A DNA stretch of 64,000 bases. Source: a virus. Its lineage: Duplodnaviria > Caudoviricetes. Below the pieces are notes generated by a model. The model was not told the DNA's origin. It searched no databases and saw only the letters and a list, made by a program, of their open reading frames with translations. The translations under genes and the position numbers were made by a program. Within the stretch, counting starts at the first letter, position 1, and each line of letters opens with the position of its first letter. The stretch lies in IMG/VR virus record IMGVR_UViG_3300032782_000002; one strand, given 5' to 3'. Below are positions 41,972-51,753 of this stretch, piece by piece.

Positions 41972-41999
41972 TTGACATCAAGTGCGCCTCGTGCACAAT
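41972..41999 (+). promoter_or_regulatory. Promoter of the HTH-cas1-cas2-array unit
   Basis: TTGACA-N16-CACAAT; 29/39 identical to the promoter at 45591. Confidence 0.7.
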
Positions 42000-42201: not shown

Positions 42202-43215
42202 ATGCGCCTCACCGCGCGCGTCGTGGATGTCGCGGAGCACGGTCGGCGACTGTCGCTTGAGCAGGGCTTCCTGGTTGTCCACGACGAACGACGCGCCGAG
42301 CTTGGGCGCGTTCCGCTAGATGACGTTGGCGCGGTGCTCCTGCACGCGCAGGGCACGAGCTGTACGACACCCCTCATAGCGGCCCTGGCACACCGTGGAG
42401 CCGTGCTCGCGGTGTGTGACGGCCATCATCTACCCGTCGCGTGGACCCTGCCGGTCGGAGATCATTCGGGGCAGGCGCGCACTATCGCCGCTCAGGTGGA
42501 TGCTCCCAAGCCGTTCACCAAGCGGTTGTGGCAGTACGTTGTTCAGGCCAAGATCGCTTCGCAGGCGGACGTGTTGGCGGTGTGCGGGAAGAACCGCGCG
42601 CTGCTCGACGGTCTGGTCGGACTTGTGCGCTCTGGCGATCCGGCGAATGTCGAAGCGCGCGCCGCGCAGGCGTACTGGCCGACGTTGTTCGGGGCGGCCT
42701 TCCGGCGTGATCGCGAGGCACCGGGCATCAACGCGGCGCTCAACTACGGCTACACGGTGTTGCGCGCCTCGGTGGCGCGCGCCGTTGTCGCCTGCGGCCT
42801 GCACCCAAGTATCGGCGTCAAGCACCGTCGTGACCCGCTCGCTCTCGTGAGTGATCTGATGGAGCCGTTTCGTGCGGTGGTCGATTGTCGGGTGGCGATC
42901 ATGGCGGTGGACGGGCGCGCTGATACGAGCCGCCGCTCACGTGAGGAGCTGGTGGAGCTGCTCGGCGGTGACATCGAGGCGGGCGTGATGCGGTTCGCGC
43001 GATCGATCGGGGACGCTTACCTGACGGGTGTGTGCCCGGTGTGGAGGCGATCGGATGTGGCTGTTGGTGCTGTTCGATCTGCCGGCGACGACACGCGCGG
43101 ATCGCTGGTTAGCGTCGCGGTTCCGGAACGCCCTTCTGGCCCGCGGCTTCGAGAGGCTTCAGCTGTCGGTGTACACGCGGAGGTGCCCTGGGGCGGCGAC
43201 GACGCTGGCGGCTGA
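42202..43215 (+). CDS. cas1: CRISPR integrase Cas1, type II-like
   Basis: GRVPLDDV, GDPANVEARAAQAYW, INAALNYGYTVLRA, GLHPSIGVKH, SDLMEPFR; catalytic E/H/D present. Confidence 0.95.
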   Translation: MRLTARVVDVAEHGRRLSLEQGFLVVHDERRAELGRVPLDDVGAVLLHAQGTSCTTPLIAALAHRGAVLAVCDGHHLPVAWTLPVGDHSGQARTIAAQVDAPKPFTKRLWQYVVQAKIASQADVLAVCGKNRALLDGLVGLVRSGDPANVEARAAQAYWPTLFGAAFRRDREAPGINAALNYGYTVLRASVARAVVACGLHPSIGVKHRRDPLALVSDLMEPFRAVVDCRVAIMAVDGRADTSRRSREELVELLGGDIEAGVMRFARSIGDAYLTGVCPVWRRSDVAVGAVRSAGDDTRGSLVSVAVPERPSGPRLREASAVGVHAEVPWGGDDAGG

Positions 43216-43351
43216 TGTACGCCGTCTTTTGCCGGCGAGCGGCAGCGCGTGCCTAATCGAGCTGACGGATCTGCAGTACGAGGGGCTCGTTCGTCTGCAA
43301 GGCGGCGAGCCGCTGGTCTTTGAAAAACCGAAGCGGCTGATCTCGTTCTGA
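43055..43351 (+). CDS. cas2: Cas2, type II-like
   Basis: MWLLVLFDLP...FRNALLARGFERLQLSVY...LTDLQYE; GGAGG RBS at 43043-43047. Confidence 0.93.
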   Translation: MWLLVLFDLPATTRADRWLASRFRNALLARGFERLQLSVYTRRCPGAATTLAADVRRLLPASGSACLIELTDLQYEGLVRLQGGEPLVFEKPKRLISF

Positions 43352-43423
43352 GGTCTGAGGCCGCCTTTCTCAAGCGCGCCGCGGATGGATTGCCGTGGGG
43401 TGCTGGGGTGTTGCGTGAAGTCA

Positions 43424-45517
43424 GATGCAAGGGGATGCGATCCCCTTGTGAGTTCCAACACCGACTACCGGATGATCGTCCTGGCGACGTCGATGCAAGG
43501 GGATGCGATCCCCTTGTGAGTTCCAACGGGCGCGGCGCATGACATCCCCCGTCACTGCCGATGCAAGGGGATGCGATCCCCTTGTGAGTTCCAACACGGC
43601 CGCGCATGCGCAGAGATCGGGGCGCGCGATGCAAGGGGATGCGATCCCCTTGTGAGTTCCAACACAGGCGCGCGAAGAAGAGGGCCAGACGTCTAGGATG
43701 CAAGGGGATGCGATCCCCTTGTGAGTTCCAACACGAACATGCGGCCGGTGCGCGGATCGATCTGGGATGCAAGGGGATGCGATCCCCTTGTGAGTTCCAA
43801 CTAGCGGGCGAGGGCGGCGCGGAGCCTGCGGTGGATGCAAGGGGATGCGATCCCCTTGTGAGTTCCAACTTGATCCCGACGCATCCGATCGAGTTGACCG
43901 CGATGCAAGGGGATGCGATCCCCTTGTGAGTTCCAACTCTTTGCCGAGCGCCAGGCGCTGCATGTAGAAGATGCAAGGGGATGCGATCCCCTTGTGAGTT
44001 CCAACCCAGAGGCGCGCGCCGCTCCCGAAGTGGTCGCGGGATGCAAGGGGATGCGATCCCCTTGTGAGTTCCAACTCGCGCACCGCGTGCGTGTCCAGGT
44101 AGCTGCGATGCAAGGGGATGCGATCCCCTTGTGAGTTCCAACGCGGGGCCCGCGAAGACCGCTTGCAGGAAGAAGATGCAAGGGGATGCGATCCCCTTGT
44201 GAGTTCCAACGACTACATGACCGAGACCGCAGCCACGGTTTCGATGCAAGGGGACGCGATCCCCTTGGGAGTTTCAACCGAGGGTGGCTCCAACAGCACC
44301 ATGGGTCTCCGCTGCAAGGGGGAACGATCCCCTTGAGAGTTCCAACTGGCTGCACACAAGGCATAGGCACCGCTCGTGATCAAGGGGACTAGATCCCCCT
44401 GGGAGTTTCAACATTAGGGCCTGATAGACGTTGTGGACGGCGGCGATGCGGGGGGATTCGATCCCCCTGGGAGTTTCAACGAGTGAGACCCGAGACCAAC
44501 CCAATCCAGTAGGATGCAAGGGGGTTCGATCCCCCTGGGAGTTTCAACTGGGACGTGACGCTGACGCCGGCCGGCGGCAGATGCAAGGGGGTTCGATCCC
44601 CCTGGGAGTTTCAACCTCATGGGTGGCGATCAGGCGGGTGGGCGCGCGATGCAAGGGGGCACGATCCCCTTGGGAGTTCCAACCTCGACAAGGCGCTGCG
44701 ACGGGATAGGTGCGTGATGCAAGGGGGCTCGATCCCCTTGAGGGTTCCAACGACATGCGGGTGCCTCTCAACCACGACGATCAGTGCGAGGGGACGTGAT
44801 CCCCTTGAGGGTTCCAACTTGATGCCGCGGTCGGCCGATGCTGACACGGAGATGCGAGGGGGATGAGATCCCCTTGGGAGTTTCAACTCGGCCACGCACA
44901 GCAAGACGTCGCGGTCTTCGATGCAAGGGGATGAGATCCCCTTGGGAGTTCCGCCGTGAGGTGGCTACCGCTGCGCTCGTGAGCTTGCGGTGCAGGGGAT
45001 GAGATTCCCCTCGTGAGGTCCAACCCCATGGCCTTTTCGATCAACTCGTCGCGCACGAGATGCAAGGGGACGTGATCCCCTTGATGGTTTCAACGTGAAC
45101 CGCACAGCGGAGGGCTAGACGTACGGGATACAAGGGGGCGATCCCCTTGAGATGTTTCAACTGGTTGGCGAAGCCGACGGCGAACGCGATGCAAGGGGAT
45201 CCCCTTGAGAGTTTCAACCAGGCCGCGCAGCAGGGCCGCGCGCATCACGGATGCAAGGGGGTGTGATCCCCTCGCGAGTTCCAACTCGATCATTGTCACC
45301 GTGCGGGCGAGGACCAGGCGGATGGCAAGCAAGGGGAGTGATCCCCTTGATAGTTTCAACTTGCGGACGTACGCGCGCACCTGGTTTCAACTGGAGTGCC
45401 TCGGGCGCGTTGCCGTCGTGCTCGGACGCAAGGGGATGAGATCCCCTTGGGAGTTTCAACGGCATCGTGGCACCGAGCGGGAGGAGCAAGGGGAGCGATC
45501 CCCTTGAGAGTTTCAAC
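43424..45517 (+). CRISPR. CRISPR array: ~31 repeats plus one remnant, 36-nt repeat, spacers mostly 31-34 nt
   Basis: Repeat GATGCAAGGGGATGCGATCCCCTTGTGAGTTCCAAC; first 12 copies identical (43424-44210), later copies degenerate; 72-bp leader after cas2. Confidence 0.98.
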
Positions 45518-45590: not shown

Positions 45591-45618
45591 TTGACACTGC
45601 GCGCGCCGCGGGCATAAT
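45591..45618 (+). promoter_or_regulatory. Promoter of the Cascade-helicase operon
   Basis: TTGACA-N16-CATAAT, near-consensus in GC-rich DNA. Confidence 0.75.
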
Positions 45619-45681: not shown

Positions 45682-45858
45682 ATGACGGCCCGTCAACCGC
45701 AGGTGCGTGTGCGTAGCAAGGGCGTGCACAAGATCATCATCGAGATCGACCTCGCGCCCGTGGCGGCGCCGCGCAAGACGGCCGCGGAGCGGTCCGCCAT
45801 TGCGAAGAAGGCGGTTGCGACGCGTCGTCGTCGTGCCGCGGAGCGTGCGGCGTCGTGA
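45682..45858 (+). CDS. 58-aa basic protein heading the Cascade operon
   Basis: AGGAGG RBS at 45671; RKTAAERSAIAKKAVATRRRR; GTGA overlap with cas5. Confidence 0.65.
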   Translation: MTARQPQVRVRSKGVHKIIIEIDLAPVAAPRKTAAERSAIAKKAVATRRRRAAERAAS

Positions 45859-46625
45859 CGGCGCCCAGGGTCTTTTGCGTGCGCGCCACGGCGCCGTACG
45901 CGTGCTGGACCAACCCGGCGCTCACGGCCGAGAGGTTCTCGTACCCCGTGCCGACTCCCGTCGGGCTGGAGGGGGTGCTCAAGTCGGTGTTCTGGCGCAA
46001 GGGCCTGCGCTACCAGATCCAGTCCATCGGCATCTGCGCGCCGATCCGGCGCCACCTGCTGCGCCGCAACGAGATCGACCACACGCCCCGTGCGGATGCG
46101 AGCACGGGGTTCAACGGCGACCGGTACGCCGTGCAGCGCATGACCAGCCGTCTCAAGGACGTGGACTACCGCGTGGAGTTCGTACTCGATCTCGACGACG
46201 GCTACAGGGATCGCTCGCTGCTGATGAAGTGCGAGGCGATGCTGTCGCGCTACCTGGATCGCGGCCACTGCTTCCAGCAGCCGTTCTTCGGCTGCAGGGA
46301 GATGGTGGGCGATGTCCGGTGGGCGGAGACCTCCGATCCGACCCCGATTGCCGAGACGCGGCCGCTCGGGCGGATGATCTACGGCTACATCTGGGACAAC
46401 GCGCGCAACCGCCGTGACGTCGTGCTGGAGTACGAACCGCACCTCGATCACGGTGTGGTTCATGTCCCGCCGCGCGGCGAGGTGTTGCGTCTCAACGGGG
46501 TGGCGCGCCCCGGAGTCGCGACGCCGCACCCGCCAGCGCATCCTCGACGGCCTCGCGCTCGTCCTGGGACACGTCCTGCCGGTCGCTCGCATCTGCCCAC
46601 CAGGTCGAAAGGAACTGCGGCGTGA
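45855..46625 (+). CDS. cas5: Cas5c (Cas5d), type I-C
   Basis: ACWTNP...ERFSYPVPTP...FWRK...RRNEI, LKDVDY, GHCFQQPFFGCRE. Confidence 0.93.
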   Translation: MTAPRVFCVRATAPYACWTNPALTAERFSYPVPTPVGLEGVLKSVFWRKGLRYQIQSIGICAPIRRHLLRRNEIDHTPRADASTGFNGDRYAVQRMTSRLKDVDYRVEFVLDLDDGYRDRSLLMKCEAMLSRYLDRGHCFQQPFFGCREMVGDVRWAETSDPTPIAETRPLGRMIYGYIWDNARNRRDVVLEYEPHLDHGVVHVPPRGEVLRLNGVARPGVATPHPPAHPRRPRARPGTRPAGRSHLPTRSKGTAA

Positions 46626-48289
46626 GGCTGCTCCAGGCGCTGGCGGAGTTCGCCGACCACAACATCCCTGACCCGACGTTCGAACGGCGGCGCATCGCCT
46701 ACGTCGTCGTGGTGGCGCCGGACGGCTCGCTGGTCGAGATCGAGGAGCACGGGCAGGACGAGCAGGTGCCGCGCATCGACGGTGGCACCAACGCCGTCAA
46801 CCCCAAGTTCCTCGTCGACACGCCCCAGTACGTGTTCGGCCTCGGCGAACAGCCCGCGGATCGGCGCGCGAAGTGTCACGCGGCGTTCGCCCAGCTCATG
46901 GCGGACCTGGCGACCCAGTGTCCGGATGCGGGCTTGAAGGCTGTCGCGGCTTTCATGCGCAAGCCGGTGCCGGCGAAGGCCAAGGCGCTGTCGCTCAAGG
47001 GTACCGAGTGGATGACGTTCCGGCTGCAGGGCGACAAGAGGTTCGTGTTCGAGCGGCCGAAGGTGCGTCGCTTGTGGAACGCCCGCATCGCGGCAGCGGG
47101 CTCCGATCTCAAGGCCGTGTGCCGCGTGACAGGCCGCACCGCTCCGATCGCGATGCTGCACCCCACCATCGCGATGCCAGACAGCAAAGGCGCCAAGCTG
47201 GTCAGCTTCAACCTCGATGTGTCCCGCTTCGAAGGTCGCAAACAAGGCGCGAACTTCGAGGTGTCGCAGGACGTGGCGCGCGCGTACGGCGCGGCGCTCA
47301 AGTTCATGCTGGAGCGCAAGGAAGACGGGCAGCTCAGGTCGGCCGCCTTCTTCAAGGGCGACCTGAAGGGCAGCGCCATGGGGACCGTCGTGCCCTTCAC
47401 CAAGGACGGCCGATCCATGCAGCCGCTGCTCGACGTGCTGATGCTGCCGTTCATCAAGGACGAGCGCGAGCGGTCTGCGCGTCTGGAGCAGGCGTGGGCG
47501 ACGATGACCGCCTGGTGCGCCGACGACGAACTGCTGCACGTCGTGATCCTCAAGAGCAACCAGGCCCGCATCATGGTGCTCGACTACTTCGAGCGGCCGC
47601 TGTCGGAGATCGCGGCCAACGTGTTGCAGTTTCGCCGCGAGGTGCTCGACGAGCTTGCACGCCCCGAGTCCGAGACGCCGCGTGCCGTGACGCTCGCGTA
47701 CCTGCTCAACACCATGATGGGTCCGGACGGACGCATCACGCCGTTCGCGTTGGGGATCCTGCGCGCCATGTTGTGCGGGGATCCGTACCCCCAGCCGCTC
47801 GCCTGGATGCGCGGTGAGAGCGGTGACGTATGGCGCCGGGCTATCCGGCGCCGCAGTCAGAAGGAGCCCGTTTCCATGAGTCTCGATCCCGACAACCCCG
47901 ACCAGGCGTACCAGCGCGGACGGCTGGCCGCGATCATCAAGGAACTGCACTACGAGGTGACTCGCGGGCGCGGGCAGTTGACGCTCGTGCCGTCGATCGC
48001 GCAGGCGGCCAAGATGCCCTCGTATGGCATGCAGCTGCTGCAGCGTCGCGCGCTCCAGTTCATCGACGCGCTCGAACGGCGCAACAACCGCGCCTCCGCC
48101 GCCGCGTACTACGAGGTCGCGGGCAAGATCGGGCCGGCGCCTATCCGCCACACGCGCGCGCAGGAGGAGTCGTTCATGCGCGGCTTCGTGGATCAGGTGC
48201 AGGCGCTGCGCGAGCGCATCCGCCGCTACCAGGAGGAGAAGAACGCTGTGGACGCCGTCGAAGGCGTCGAGGCCCCCGCGGCCGAGTAG
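46622..48289 (+). CDS. cas8c: Cas8c (Csd1), type I-C large subunit
   Basis: LLQAL N-terminus, FLVDTPQYVFG, CRVTG...LHPTI, GAKLVSFN, C-terminal LDPDNPDQAYQRGRL. Confidence 0.9.
   Translation: MRLLQALAEFADHNIPDPTFERRRIAYVVVVAPDGSLVEIEEHGQDEQVPRIDGGTNAVNPKFLVDTPQYVFGLGEQPADRRAKCHAAFAQLMADLATQCPDAGLKAVAAFMRKPVPAKAKALSLKGTEWMTFRLQGDKRFVFERPKVRRLWNARIAAAGSDLKAVCRVTGRTAPIAMLHPTIAMPDSKGAKLVSFNLDVSRFEGRKQGANFEVSQDVARAYGAALKFMLERKEDGQLRSAAFFKGDLKGSAMGTVVPFTKDGRSMQPLLDVLMLPFIKDERERSARLEQAWATMTAWCADDELLHVVILKSNQARIMVLDYFERPLSEIAANVLQFRREVLDELARPESETPRAVTLAYLLNTMMGPDGRITPFALGILRAMLCGDPYPQPLAWMRGESGDVWRRAIRRRSQKEPVSMSLDPDNPDQAYQRGRLAAIIKELHYEVTRGRGQLTLVPSIAQAAKMPSYGMQLLQRRALQFIDALERRNNRASAAAYYEVAGKIGPAPIRHTRAQEESFMRGFVDQVQALRERIRRYQEEKNAVDAVEGVEAPAAE
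47876..48289 (+). CDS. cas11: Cas11 small subunit, internally translated from cas8c
   Basis: AAGGAG at 47861-47866, then in-frame ATG (MSLDPDN), the arrangement known from type I-C. Confidence 0.7.
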   Translation: MSLDPDNPDQAYQRGRLAAIIKELHYEVTRGRGQLTLVPSIAQAAKMPSYGMQLLQRRALQFIDALERRNNRASAAAYYEVAGKIGPAPIRHTRAQEESFMRGFVDQVQALRERIRRYQEEKNAVDAVEGVEAPAAE

Positions 48290-48345: not shown

Positions 48346-49347
48346 ATGCTGAAAACGAATGTGAAGCGCCGCGATCTCGTGCTGCTGTACGACGTGATGG
48401 ACGGGTCCGTGAACAACGATCCCGACACCAACGCGCCCCGCCAGGATCCCGACACCGGGATCGGCTCGGTCAGCGCCGAGTGTATCAAGCGCAAGATCCG
48501 TGACGAGGTCGCACGCGAGAAGGCGGGCGAGCCTGGTTACGAGCTGCTCGTGGCGCGCGGTGCGGTGCTCAACCGCGCCATCCGCGAGGCGTACGAGGAG
48601 GCGTCCGTCAAGATCCCGGACGCCCCGAAGAAGCCCGCGAAGGCTGCGAAGGCGGGTAAGAGCGGCAAGTCGGCGAGCGCGCCCAAGGACGACGAGGTGG
48701 CCGAGGACGAGGAGGTCGGGCAAGAGCGCGACCAGCGCGTCTCGGCCGCGGATGCTGCGCGCGGCAATAGGCGTCTCGTCGAGAAGTTCTTCGACGCGCG
48801 CTGGTTCGGCCAGGTCGTGACGGGTGTCGGTGCGGGGCGCATCACGGGTCCGGTGCAGATCCAGGAGGCGCGCTCGATCGTGCCGGTGCGCATCGACGAG
48901 GTCGCGCGTACGCGCGTGGCGACGACGAACGAGGAGCAGTCCAAGGCCCAGAAGGGGCTCAACCAGAATCGGTCGCGCAAGGCGCGGTTGTCGCATGCTC
49001 TCTACAAGCAGATGCTGCACATCTCGCCCTTCCAGGCGCTCACTACCGGGTTTTCCGAAAAGGACTTCGAGGTGCTGTTGAAGGCGCTCAAGTCGATGTT
49101 CGAGAACGATCGCTCGACTTCGCGCGGCATGGTCTCGATGCGTCAGATCGTCGTGTTCGAGCACACCGATCCGCTGGGCAGCGCGCGTGCGGTCGACCTG
49201 CTCAACAGCGTGCGCGTCGTGCCGCAGGTCGAGGCGCCGACGTGCTTCGAGCAGTACACCGTGACCATCGATCGCAGCACGCTCCCCGCGGGGGTGATCG
49301 TCACAACGGCGTGGCCGGAGGCGACGGCCTCCGCGGCGGCCGAGTAG
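48346..49347 (+). CDS. cas7: Cas7 (Csd2), type I-C backbone
   Basis: LLYDV.DG..NNDPD...PRQD..TG.G...CIKRKIRD, FFDARWFGQV, TGPVQI, TGFSE.D, MFENDRS..RG. Confidence 0.95.
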   Translation: MLKTNVKRRDLVLLYDVMDGSVNNDPDTNAPRQDPDTGIGSVSAECIKRKIRDEVAREKAGEPGYELLVARGAVLNRAIREAYEEASVKIPDAPKKPAKAAKAGKSGKSASAPKDDEVAEDEEVGQERDQRVSAADAARGNRRLVEKFFDARWFGQVVTGVGAGRITGPVQIQEARSIVPVRIDEVARTRVATTNEEQSKAQKGLNQNRSRKARLSHALYKQMLHISPFQALTTGFSEKDFEVLLKALKSMFENDRSTSRGMVSMRQIVVFEHTDPLGSARAVDLLNSVRVVPQVEAPTCFEQYTVTIDRSTLPAGVIVTTAWPEATASAAAE

Positions 49348-49361
49348 GAAGACGCGCCGTG

Positions 49362-49390
49362 GGCGCCCGGCGTGTGGTGCGCCGGGCGCC
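49362..49390 (+). other. GC-rich hairpin between cas7 and the helicase
   Basis: GGCGCCCGGCG-TGTGGTG-CGCCGGGCGCC, 11-bp stem, no U-tract. Confidence 0.6.
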
Positions 49391-49413
49391 GCTGCGTTAT
49401 GAGGGACCACACG

Positions 49414-51753
49414 ATGGGTATCAAGCGGCTGCACTACTACCAGCAGCGGCTGGTCAAGCAGTTGTTGGCTGTGCCGGCGACGCAGCAAGAGATCGGGGTG
49501 GTCTACCCGCAGGGCTCGGGCAAGACGCTCATACTGTTGTGCTACGCGGCTCTCGCTCTTGGGTCGCGTGTCAGCCACGTGCTCGTTGTGTGCCCGCAGG
49601 GGCAGATCTCGGACGCGTGGCGCCGCCCAAGTGGCCTGTGGAGTGTGGGTGGTGGCCTCTGCGTGAACCTGGATGATCTCGTGGACCTCGCCGGTGAGGG
49701 GCTCACGGGCACTGTCGAGAATGTGTGCGGCTACCTGAAGTTGCCGCGCGCGGATCGCGTGTTGATCGCGCAGCACGCGACGCTCACGTGGTCGCGACCA
49801 GGCAGCGACGGTCCGGCACTGCTCGACTCTCTACCCCAAGATCTGTCCGGCTACGTGCTGGTCATCGACGAGGCGCACCGCAACCGCGCGGTGGGGCTGT
49901 CGCGGATCCGTACTGTGTGGTTGGCGCGCGGCGGTACGGTCATCGACGTGACCGCGACACCGTATCGTACCGACAGGCAGCCCGTGATGGGGCCGACCGC
50001 GCGCGTCTTCTCGCGTAGCTACGCCCTGCACGCGGTTGAGGGGTACGCGCCGAGCAACATCGAGACGGCCATCATTCCGGTGCCCGTGCCAGCGGCGGCG
50101 ACCGACGGCCTGGACAAGGATGCGTGGATCGAGCACGTCTGCGATCGGGTTGTCGCCCAGTGGTCTCAGGACGGTCGCCCGAAGGCGGTCGTGCACGTGC
50201 CCGCCATCGCGCGGGAAGACTCGGGTGAGGACAGCGGCGAGCCGTTCTTGCATGAGAAGATCGTGAATCGGCTCGGCGATCTGTTTCGCGCGCGTGGGGT
50301 CCCCGTGTTCGCGGCATTCGATCGACAGCGCTCCGATATGGTGACGGCGCAGTTCATCGAGATGCTCCGGCAGGAGCGGGATCGCGCCGCGCAGGGCTAC
50401 GCGGCGTCCAAGTACGATGTCATCCTGGCCGTGCGGCGGATGGATGAGGGGACCGACTGGCCGTTCTGCTCGGCCGTCTACTTCATCGACATGCCTGGCG
50501 CGCAGTGGATCATCGAACAGGTCTTCGGCCGCGCGACGCGCGACAAGCGCACCATCCCCGGCTACCCGGCAGCGTGGGTCGATCGAGTCCGCGTCGCATT
50601 CTTCATCGCCGACGCGGACACCGCCGTGCGCAAGCACCCGCTGTCGACGTTCATCTCGGCGTGCATGCTGGCCGATCACGGCATCTCGCAGCGCATCGCG
50701 AACCTGAGGCGGATCAAGACAAGCTTGGAGCGCGCTATCGGGCACCGTGCCGGTCGGATCGTGCGCCAGATCGCCGAGATGTGCGACGTACCCGCGGACG
50801 TCAGTGCGTTGATCGAGGGCTCGATCATCGCGACGTCTTCTCGGGATCCGGCTGTCATCGAGCGCCACCTGGCTGCGTCGGGCAAGCCGGTCGCGCCGTC
50901 CGTGCTCGCGGGGTATCTGGCACTGCGTGACGGATCGTCGGCAGAGGCGGTGGCCGGCGCGTACGTAGGTCGCCACCGCGACCGCGATCCGTACGGGCTG
51001 GCGGATCTCGACACGGCGTTGCTCGCGGCCTTCGAGGAGCCGAGCAAACAGTTCGCGCACGGTCGCGTCACGGCCGCCTATGACGAACGTACAAAGGCGA
51101 TCATCGCCTCGCTCGCCAGGTTCGACGCCCAGGAGGCTTCCGAACCGGCTGAAGTGGCGCGCAAGTACCTCCAGCTCGCGGCCACGCCGTTGGATCTCAC
51201 CGACATCCAGGTGGCCGTGCGCAAGTTTGTTGACGAGCGCCGCGTCCATCCGATGTATCGGGACGGTCCCGTGCGACCCGGTCTCATGTGGTCCGAGGTC
51301 GTGGCCGCCGTCCTTGAAGGTGCGCGTGGACTACCGCGCTACGATTCGTGGAACCACTTCTGCCGTGACGCGCTCGGGGCAGACGCGAAGGACGCGAAGG
51401 ATGCCTGGGCTGACGACTACGCGGCCGTGGTTGGGGTCGAGTACTTCGATCTGACCGATGACGCATCGGTGCGGGCGAAGATGATGCGCGCGTACCCCAA
51501 GCTCAGCTCCAAGGATGCCCCGGCTCTCTGCCGCGCGGTGCACTTGTTCGGGGCCGATCTCGTCGCGAGTCTTGGTGCGGAGGCGGCCGTGCCGCTCGGG
51601 GACAAGAAAGTCTGGAAGCAGCTACAGGGTCAGAACCGCCGCGCCATCGACAAGCTTCGGCGCGACATTCTGGCGCGCCGGGATCGCGGCGAGACGTTTC
51701 AGGCCGGCGACGTGCGGCGCGAGCTGAAGCGGCACATCGACACGGCAGGTTGA
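49414..51753 (+). CDS. SF2 DEAH helicase (ResIII/HsdR-like), CRISPR-associated, no HD domain
   Basis: LHYYQ, PQGSGKT, LVIDEAH, TATPYR, MDEGTDWP, EQVFGRATR; ~330-aa C-terminal extension; start could also be 49399. Confidence 0.88.
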   Translation: MGIKRLHYYQQRLVKQLLAVPATQQEIGVVYPQGSGKTLILLCYAALALGSRVSHVLVVCPQGQISDAWRRPSGLWSVGGGLCVNLDDLVDLAGEGLTGTVENVCGYLKLPRADRVLIAQHATLTWSRPGSDGPALLDSLPQDLSGYVLVIDEAHRNRAVGLSRIRTVWLARGGTVIDVTATPYRTDRQPVMGPTARVFSRSYALHAVEGYAPSNIETAIIPVPVPAAATDGLDKDAWIEHVCDRVVAQWSQDGRPKAVVHVPAIAREDSGEDSGEPFLHEKIVNRLGDLFRARGVPVFAAFDRQRSDMVTAQFIEMLRQERDRAAQGYAASKYDVILAVRRMDEGTDWPFCSAVYFIDMPGAQWIIEQVFGRATRDKRTIPGYPAAWVDRVRVAFFIADADTAVRKHPLSTFISACMLADHGISQRIANLRRIKTSLERAIGHRAGRIVRQIAEMCDVPADVSALIEGSIIATSSRDPAVIERHLAASGKPVAPSVLAGYLALRDGSSAEAVAGAYVGRHRDRDPYGLADLDTALLAAFEEPSKQFAHGRVTAAYDERTKAIIASLARFDAQEASEPAEVARKYLQLAATPLDLTDIQVAVRKFVDERRVHPMYRDGPVRPGLMWSEVVAAVLEGARGLPRYDSWNHFCRDALGADAKDAKDAWADDYAAVVGVEYFDLTDDASVRAKMMRAYPKLSSKDAPALCRAVHLFGADLVASLGAEAAVPLGDKKVWKQLQGQNRRAIDKLRRDILARRDRGETFQAGDVRRELKRHIDTAG

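Follow-up and report, generated by a model that had tools for sequence, protein, structure and literature searches.

The 36-nt repeat of this CRISPR array appears to be the native repeat of a helicase- and methyltransferase-linked I-C variant, inherited together with its Cascade, and the cas1-cas2-leader block in front of it appears to have been acquired later; we put the probability of this reading at roughly 70%. What is hybrid is the locus, while the repeat itself is ordinary for its rare, nuclease-less I-C variant family and unremarkable alone. The locus lies in a 64-kb stretch (the window) of a ~221-kb contig, and the element carrying it looks phage-like, judging from its small unknown genes, collagen-like fibre genes and a phage-family ATPase. 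On the + strand the order is cas1, cas2, leader, array, a small ORF, cas5c, cas8c, cas7c, an SF2 helicase and a 229-aa ORF (Table 1). This combination of array, Cascade and II-C-derived cas1-cas2 was found at one locus, and no report of a type II-family Cas1 paired with a I-C Cascade was found in the literature searched, the coverage of which was incomplete.

Table 1. Features of the CRISPR locus, in positions of the 64-kb window.
Feature	Position	Strand	Remarks
Sigma70-like promoter (predicted)	41972..41999	+	Consensus match 10/12; upstream of small ORF and cas1-cas2-array
cas1, type II-C-derived	42202..43215	+	TIGR03639 212.7 bits, cut-off 120
cas2, type II-like	43055..43351 (ORF open from 43028)	+	PF09827, TIGR01573, PADLOC Cas2_II
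Leader, 72 nt	43352..43423	+	Between cas2 stop and first repeat
Leader-proximal repeat	43424..43459	+	4-nt 5' flank, 9-bp stem, 3-nt loop, 11-nt predicted crRNA 5' handle
12 identical repeats	43424..44210	+	Spacers 31-34 nt, mean 32.25
~19 variant repeats	44243..45517	+	Stem core and tail mostly kept; loop and first handle base vary; spacers ~32 nt
Sigma70-like promoter (predicted) for Cascade operon	45591..45618	+	Consensus match 11/12
cas5c, predicted processing nuclease	45855..46625	+	TIGR01876 101 bits, cut-off 85
cas8c, divergent	46622..48289	+	PF09709 227 bits; TIGR01863 196.6, below cut-off 218.65
cas7c	48346..49347	+	TIGR02589 193.5 bits, cut-off 182.25
SF2 helicase (ResIII-like), in Cas3 slot	49372..51753	+	No HD dipeptide, no Cas3 match
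Class I SAM-methyltransferase-fold protein, 229 aa	51755..52444	+	Model pLDDT 94

The leader-proximal repeat is the first of the exact copies, of which none would be expected by chance, and a 13th copy carries three mismatches to the 36-nt unit. The Watson-Crick stem runs from C5-G25 to T13-A17, and 11 nt (TGAGTTCCAAC) follow G25 on its 3' side. The minimum-energy fold (-15.4 kcal/mol, z -3.4) adds a G4-U26 wobble, which leaves a tail of 10 nt. Since most variant copies have G, A or C at position 26, and the C5-G25 pair is intact in 19/19 distinct copies, the reading of 9 bp plus 11 nt holds, with G25 as the base of the stem. Covariation in the stem among the variant copies did not exceed that of shuffled sequences. 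Of the first 25 spacers, 17 measured 32 nt, within a range of 31-34 nt. The anatomy given in the original prediction (36 nt, 9-bp stem, 3-nt loop, 11-nt tail and modal 32-nt spacers) was thereby borne out, and the gene models agreed with its picture of a repeat of Cas5c-type layout, flanked by a type II-like Cas1-Cas2 on one side and a I-C Cascade on the other.

The identical repeats sit at the cas2 end of the array, and the + orientation is backed by gene direction, the promoter-like sites and the polarity of repeat decay. In the trailer units at 45183-45517, deletions and a short duplication were observed (a 31-nt repeat, a repeat remnant near 45384-45391 and a 23-nt spacer). Repeat-pattern scans of viral and metagenome contigs gave no second copy of the exact repeat, and no protospacers were found in phage or plasmid collections, the fetched loci or the window.

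In its layout, the effector matches the helicase-linked, Cas3-less I-C variant described from huge phages (Al-Shayeb et al. 2020), with a methyltransferase-fold partner. That variant is presented with a helicase instead of Cas3 and without Cas1 and Cas2 (PMC7162821, Extended Data Fig. 9). The window locus resembles the variant as described in a Cas5d-like Cas5 with a partly altered active site, Cas8c, Cas7, the absence of Cas6, a non-Cas3 helicase and a phage-like element, and differs in having a II-C-derived cas1-cas2-leader in cis. The methyltransferase-fold partner present here is not mentioned for the variant in that part of the source. The Cas8c is above the Pfam cut-off and below the TIGR cut-off. 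In Cas5c, alignment of the catalytic triad showed that the Lys is conserved as K125, a placement based on the K-x-x-x-M spacing (one local alignment is shifted by one residue), whereas F46 occupies the Tyr position and C126 the His position; a Cys at the latter falls outside the substitutions listed in PMC8524198. Judged from these residues, processing activity of Cas5c is likely.

The helicase has no HD motif and no match to any solved Cas3. For the 229-aa protein, the top PDB matches of the model were all methyltransferases (TM ~0.4), and a gene of this fold stands behind the helicase in all three related elements, with homologues in L013, L202 and G001. The protein has 44 relatives in a representative library and no Pfam family. 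Cas3, Cas4 and Cas1c were all absent from the 64-kb window, and no Cas9-sized or Cas9-like ORF was present around the array within the 64 kb taken from the ~221-kb contig. Outside the array, the window contained no tracrRNA anti-repeat at 14 nt with up to one mismatch, and no Rfam tracrRNA was detected.

Relatives of the Cascade carry repeats of the same kind with no cas1 next to them. In locus L007, Cas5 and Cas7 are 56% and 60% identical to the window proteins, and the 36-nt repeat, which has a flank of 4 nt and a stem of 8 bp, agrees with the window repeat in all of its last 10 nt. The L007 array continues on L202 into matching helicase and methyltransferase-fold genes, and no cas1 was found in the available flanks on either side of L007/L202. 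Two L202 genes of 221 and 482 aa were considered as adaptation genes and rejected, being ORFs that run across the array. A second array, 29-nt and I-E-like, lies at 13-640 of the L007 contig, 8 kb upstream of the variant Cascade. Loci L013 and L014 contain the matching five-gene module with a degenerate 35-36-nt repeat and no adjacent cas1. The repeat tail also led to a complete 437-kb phage (G001), in which array, cas5, cas8, cas7, helicase, methyltransferase gene and a further array follow one another (L248, G001:C1:99640-111120). Its arrays have 36-nt repeats with the tail as in the window, a modal period of 72-74 nt and spacers of 36-38 nt, and no Cas1 was found anywhere in the genome. The G001 repeats vary mainly in the loop, with the stem and handle persisting, as they do in the older repeats of the window.

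The same features are frequent among ordinary I-C repeats. In a control of 83 distinct repeats of 31-37 nt, 29 measured 35-37 nt, essentially all ended in AAC or AAT (AAAC or AAAT), and the layout of 4 nt, 9 bp and 11 nt was common. Over the last 11 nt, identity to the window repeat was 8-10 for the Cascade kin, 6.9 for I-C, 5.8 for II-C and 4.7 for the Cas1 kin, the window handle matching ordinary I-C handles at 6-8/11 positions. Because the Cas1-less Cascade kin and ordinary I-C repeats share the 36-nt length, the hairpin, the handle and the AAC end, these features are, on sequence comparison, effector-side I-C heritage that needs no type II explanation. Compared with canonical I-C systems (B. 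halodurans, S. mutans, D. vulgaris and N. lactamica), those of the 35-37-nt repeat class among them, the locus shares the hairpin with its 11-nt tail, the AAC end and the Cas5c-Cas8c-Cas7 operon, but its handle differs at 3-5 of 11 positions, the canonical Cas3, Cas4 and Cas1c are missing from the window, and its spacers are 32 rather than 33-35 nt long.

The original prediction had taken the 36-nt length and the AAC end as type II traits, and the corresponding scenario, in which a type II integrase imposed length and termini on a 32-nt I-C repeat, is very improbable, being largely refuted by G001 and L007. The II-C repeats fetched are indeed mostly 36 nt long and many end in CAAC, and type II integrases are guided by a length ruler and by the bases at the termini (PMC6895254). 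However, equal length and tail occur in the complete phage G001, which has no Cas1 and 36-38-nt spacers, and in L007, with no cas1 in its available flanks, and also in L202 and L013, while the kin of the window Cas1 itself use 37-nt repeats ending in GAGG. The comparison with GTT...AAC repeats had therefore addressed the wrong relatives. Likeness to type II-C systems (cas9-cas1-cas2) is confined to the Cas1/Cas2 family, the cas1-cas2-leader-array order and the 36-nt length; the differences are the lack of Cas9 and anti-repeat in the window, spacers of 32 vs 30 nt, a hairpin energy of -15.4 kcal/mol vs -1.7 to -9.4 in II-C, and the repeat sequence. In alignment, the best match of the window repeat was the Cascade relative L007 (z 4.7), and the II-C repeats averaged z 0.6. 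The repeat-clustering check proposed in the original prediction thus came out, in substance, on the I-C side.

The origin of the integrase is a different one. Cas1 fails the I-C Cas1 model (51 vs cut-off 385), and together with its 19 nearest relatives (51-68% identical) it forms one clade with support of 100/100 inside the II-C-type Cas1 proteins. In five typable kin loci (L001, L002, L005, L009 and L250) a TnpB/Cas12f (V-U3-like) gene adjoins cas1, and no Cas9-sized gene was called in any Cas1-kin locus read. Since the window Cas1 is nested in this clade, with type V-linked members on both sides in the tree, the Cascade locus probably took its cas1-cas2 module from type V loci, as tree and neighbourhood suggest. 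Cas2 is 48-64% identical to the Cas2 of most Cas1-kin loci, and both ORFs are intact in the window. The distance from cas2 to the first repeat, 72 nt here, is 73-75 nt in 6/7 Cas1-kin loci and ~30 in L009. The phage TnpB/Cas12f loci resemble the window further in the cas1/cas2 overlap and in a G(G/A)TG(C/A) repeat start, but they have a single Cas12-like effector and a ~200-aa gene instead of a Cascade, and their 37-nt GAGG-end repeats are weakly folded, with spacers of 29-32 nt. Clade-specific and single-protein scans of viral contigs gave no close Cas1 or Cas5 relatives, and a scan for further Cas1-kin arrays was blank.

Several observations were made on this clade in passing. At 43028-43215, the 3' end of cas1 overlaps cas2 by ~160-190 nt in another frame; the extension of cas1 is common to most of the clade (~335 aa vs ~305 in II-C), and the overlap may represent overprinting or a frameshift fusion. 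L001, L002, L003, L005, L009 and L250 are recurrent phage-like loci. They combine II-C-type cas1-cas2 with a TnpB/Cas12f-like gene of 492-690 aa, which is untyped in L003, and with a ~200-aa gene that in most of them has a coiled-coil end; where the sequence includes an array, its 37-nt repeats end in GAGG. These six may form an undescribed type V lineage that carries an adaptation module of its own. In L005, two internal copies of the 37-nt repeat (12214 and 12481) have another base in place of the final G, a hint that this G may come from the spacer and not belong to the repeat.

Spacer length and leader length seem, from these sequences, to follow the integrase lineage. Mean spacer length is 32.25 nt here, 30.0-30.5 nt in the Cas1 kin and 36.2-37.3 nt in L007/L202, and ordinary I-C arrays have modes of 33-35 nt in 79 of 83 cases; the spacers here are 2 nt longer than in the Cas1 kin, so that the match to a ruler is inexact. 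These lengths bear on the proposal that cas1-cas2 and the array are loose neighbours, the former being the leftover of a deleted type V locus and a host integrase filling the array in trans. All other members of the Cascade family manage without a local Cas1, and host adaptation genes acting in trans are the usual assumption for systems on mobile elements (PMC9071438), but the intact ORFs, a leader of the donor's length abutting the first repeat, and spacers that throughout are 4-5 nt shorter than in the Cascade kin and lie below the usual I-C modes make this proposal unlikely.

[quoted passage not shown] Its 5' bases, possibly with the entire 5' arm, would derive from a type V-linked repeat or have converged on one, so that the imported integrase meets a leader-repeat junction of its own kind. 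The mosaic overlaps the reading of a native repeat with a later-acquired block and adds the specific claim on the 5' end. Adaptation to the integrase would be expected in the first five repeat bases, because type II-A Cas1-Cas2 reads no further than 10 bp into the leader and 5 bp into the repeat (PMC6895254). The window repeat starts with GATGC and the Cas1-kin repeats with G(G/A)TG(C/A), for example GGTGC or GATGC. At least four of these five bases were matched in 4/7 Cas1-kin repeats, compared with 6/79 I-C, 0/13 II-C and 0/3 Cascade-kin repeats; the nominal Fisher p for Cas1 kin vs I-C was 0.003, for a 5-nt motif chosen post hoc and kin that are not independent. L011 is identical over the five bases, L005 matches if read one base in, and the L250 repeat matches at 8 of the first 13 bases. 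On the other hand, the usual I-C start already shares 3/5, a GAT start occurs in 4/83 ordinary I-C repeats, identity over the first 13 nt is barely higher in the Cas1 kin (5.9) than in the Cascade kin (5.5), and neither a Cascade-type 5' end nor long spacers have left a trace among the trailer repeats. An origin of the entire G-rich 5' arm in the Cas1 kin was rejected, as G001 has a similar arm. We regard the mosaic as possible but short of probable, and the shaping of the first five bases by the integrase lineage as equally tentative. The claim of the original prediction that the repeat serves both a type II integrase and a I-C processing enzyme does not stand for length and termini; spacer length, leader length and perhaps the first five nucleotides are what remains of it.

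Under the favoured reading of a native repeat joined by an acquired block, cas1, cas2 and leader would have reached the element from type V (TnpB/Cas12f-like) systems of phages, which in turn go back to II-C. The acquired integrase would now build the array, which would account for spacers that have shortened to 32 nt from the 36-37 nt of the Cascade kin. It may also have drawn the first five bases of the repeat toward its own junction motif. The + strand would be transcribed and cut by Cas5c after G25 at the base of the hairpin; in this family, Cas5c cleavage at the stem base gives an 11-nt handle (PMC8524198). By analogy with family biochemistry, the crRNA would consist of the 11-nt handle, a 32-nt guide and a 25-nt 3' hairpin, and its processing would take place without tracrRNA or RNase III. 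Once bound to DNA, the Cascade would bring in the helicase and the methyltransferase-fold protein; that the target is then blocked or modified without being cut is a guess.

Swaps of adaptation and effector modules are a recognised process (PMC12669027). In its fullest form, the locus would be a chimera of class 2 adaptation and class 1 effector, in which a II-C-derived, Cas12-associated Cas1-Cas2 remodelled five repeat bases, reset the spacers to 32 nt and feeds a nuclease-less helicase-methyltransferase Cascade; we consider this full version rather unlikely. During acquisition, PAM choice depends on Cas9 in type II and on Cas4 in I-C systems. If the chimera were real, PAM choice without Cas9 or Cas4 would fall to the Cascade itself or be absent, and one repeat would separate a 5' junction read by the integrase from a stem base and handle read in processing. 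Repeats in general have this double role, the integrase using them in DNA form and the processing and effector proteins in RNA form. The locus represents a natural swap experiment, with Cas1-less Cascade kin on one side and Cas12-linked Cas1 kin on the other. The comparison indicates that the effector keeps the length, hairpin and handle of its repeat, and that the integrase brings its spacer length, its leader and perhaps five bases at the junction. With adaptation and effector together, the locus is also a self-contained copy of the Cas3-less variant.
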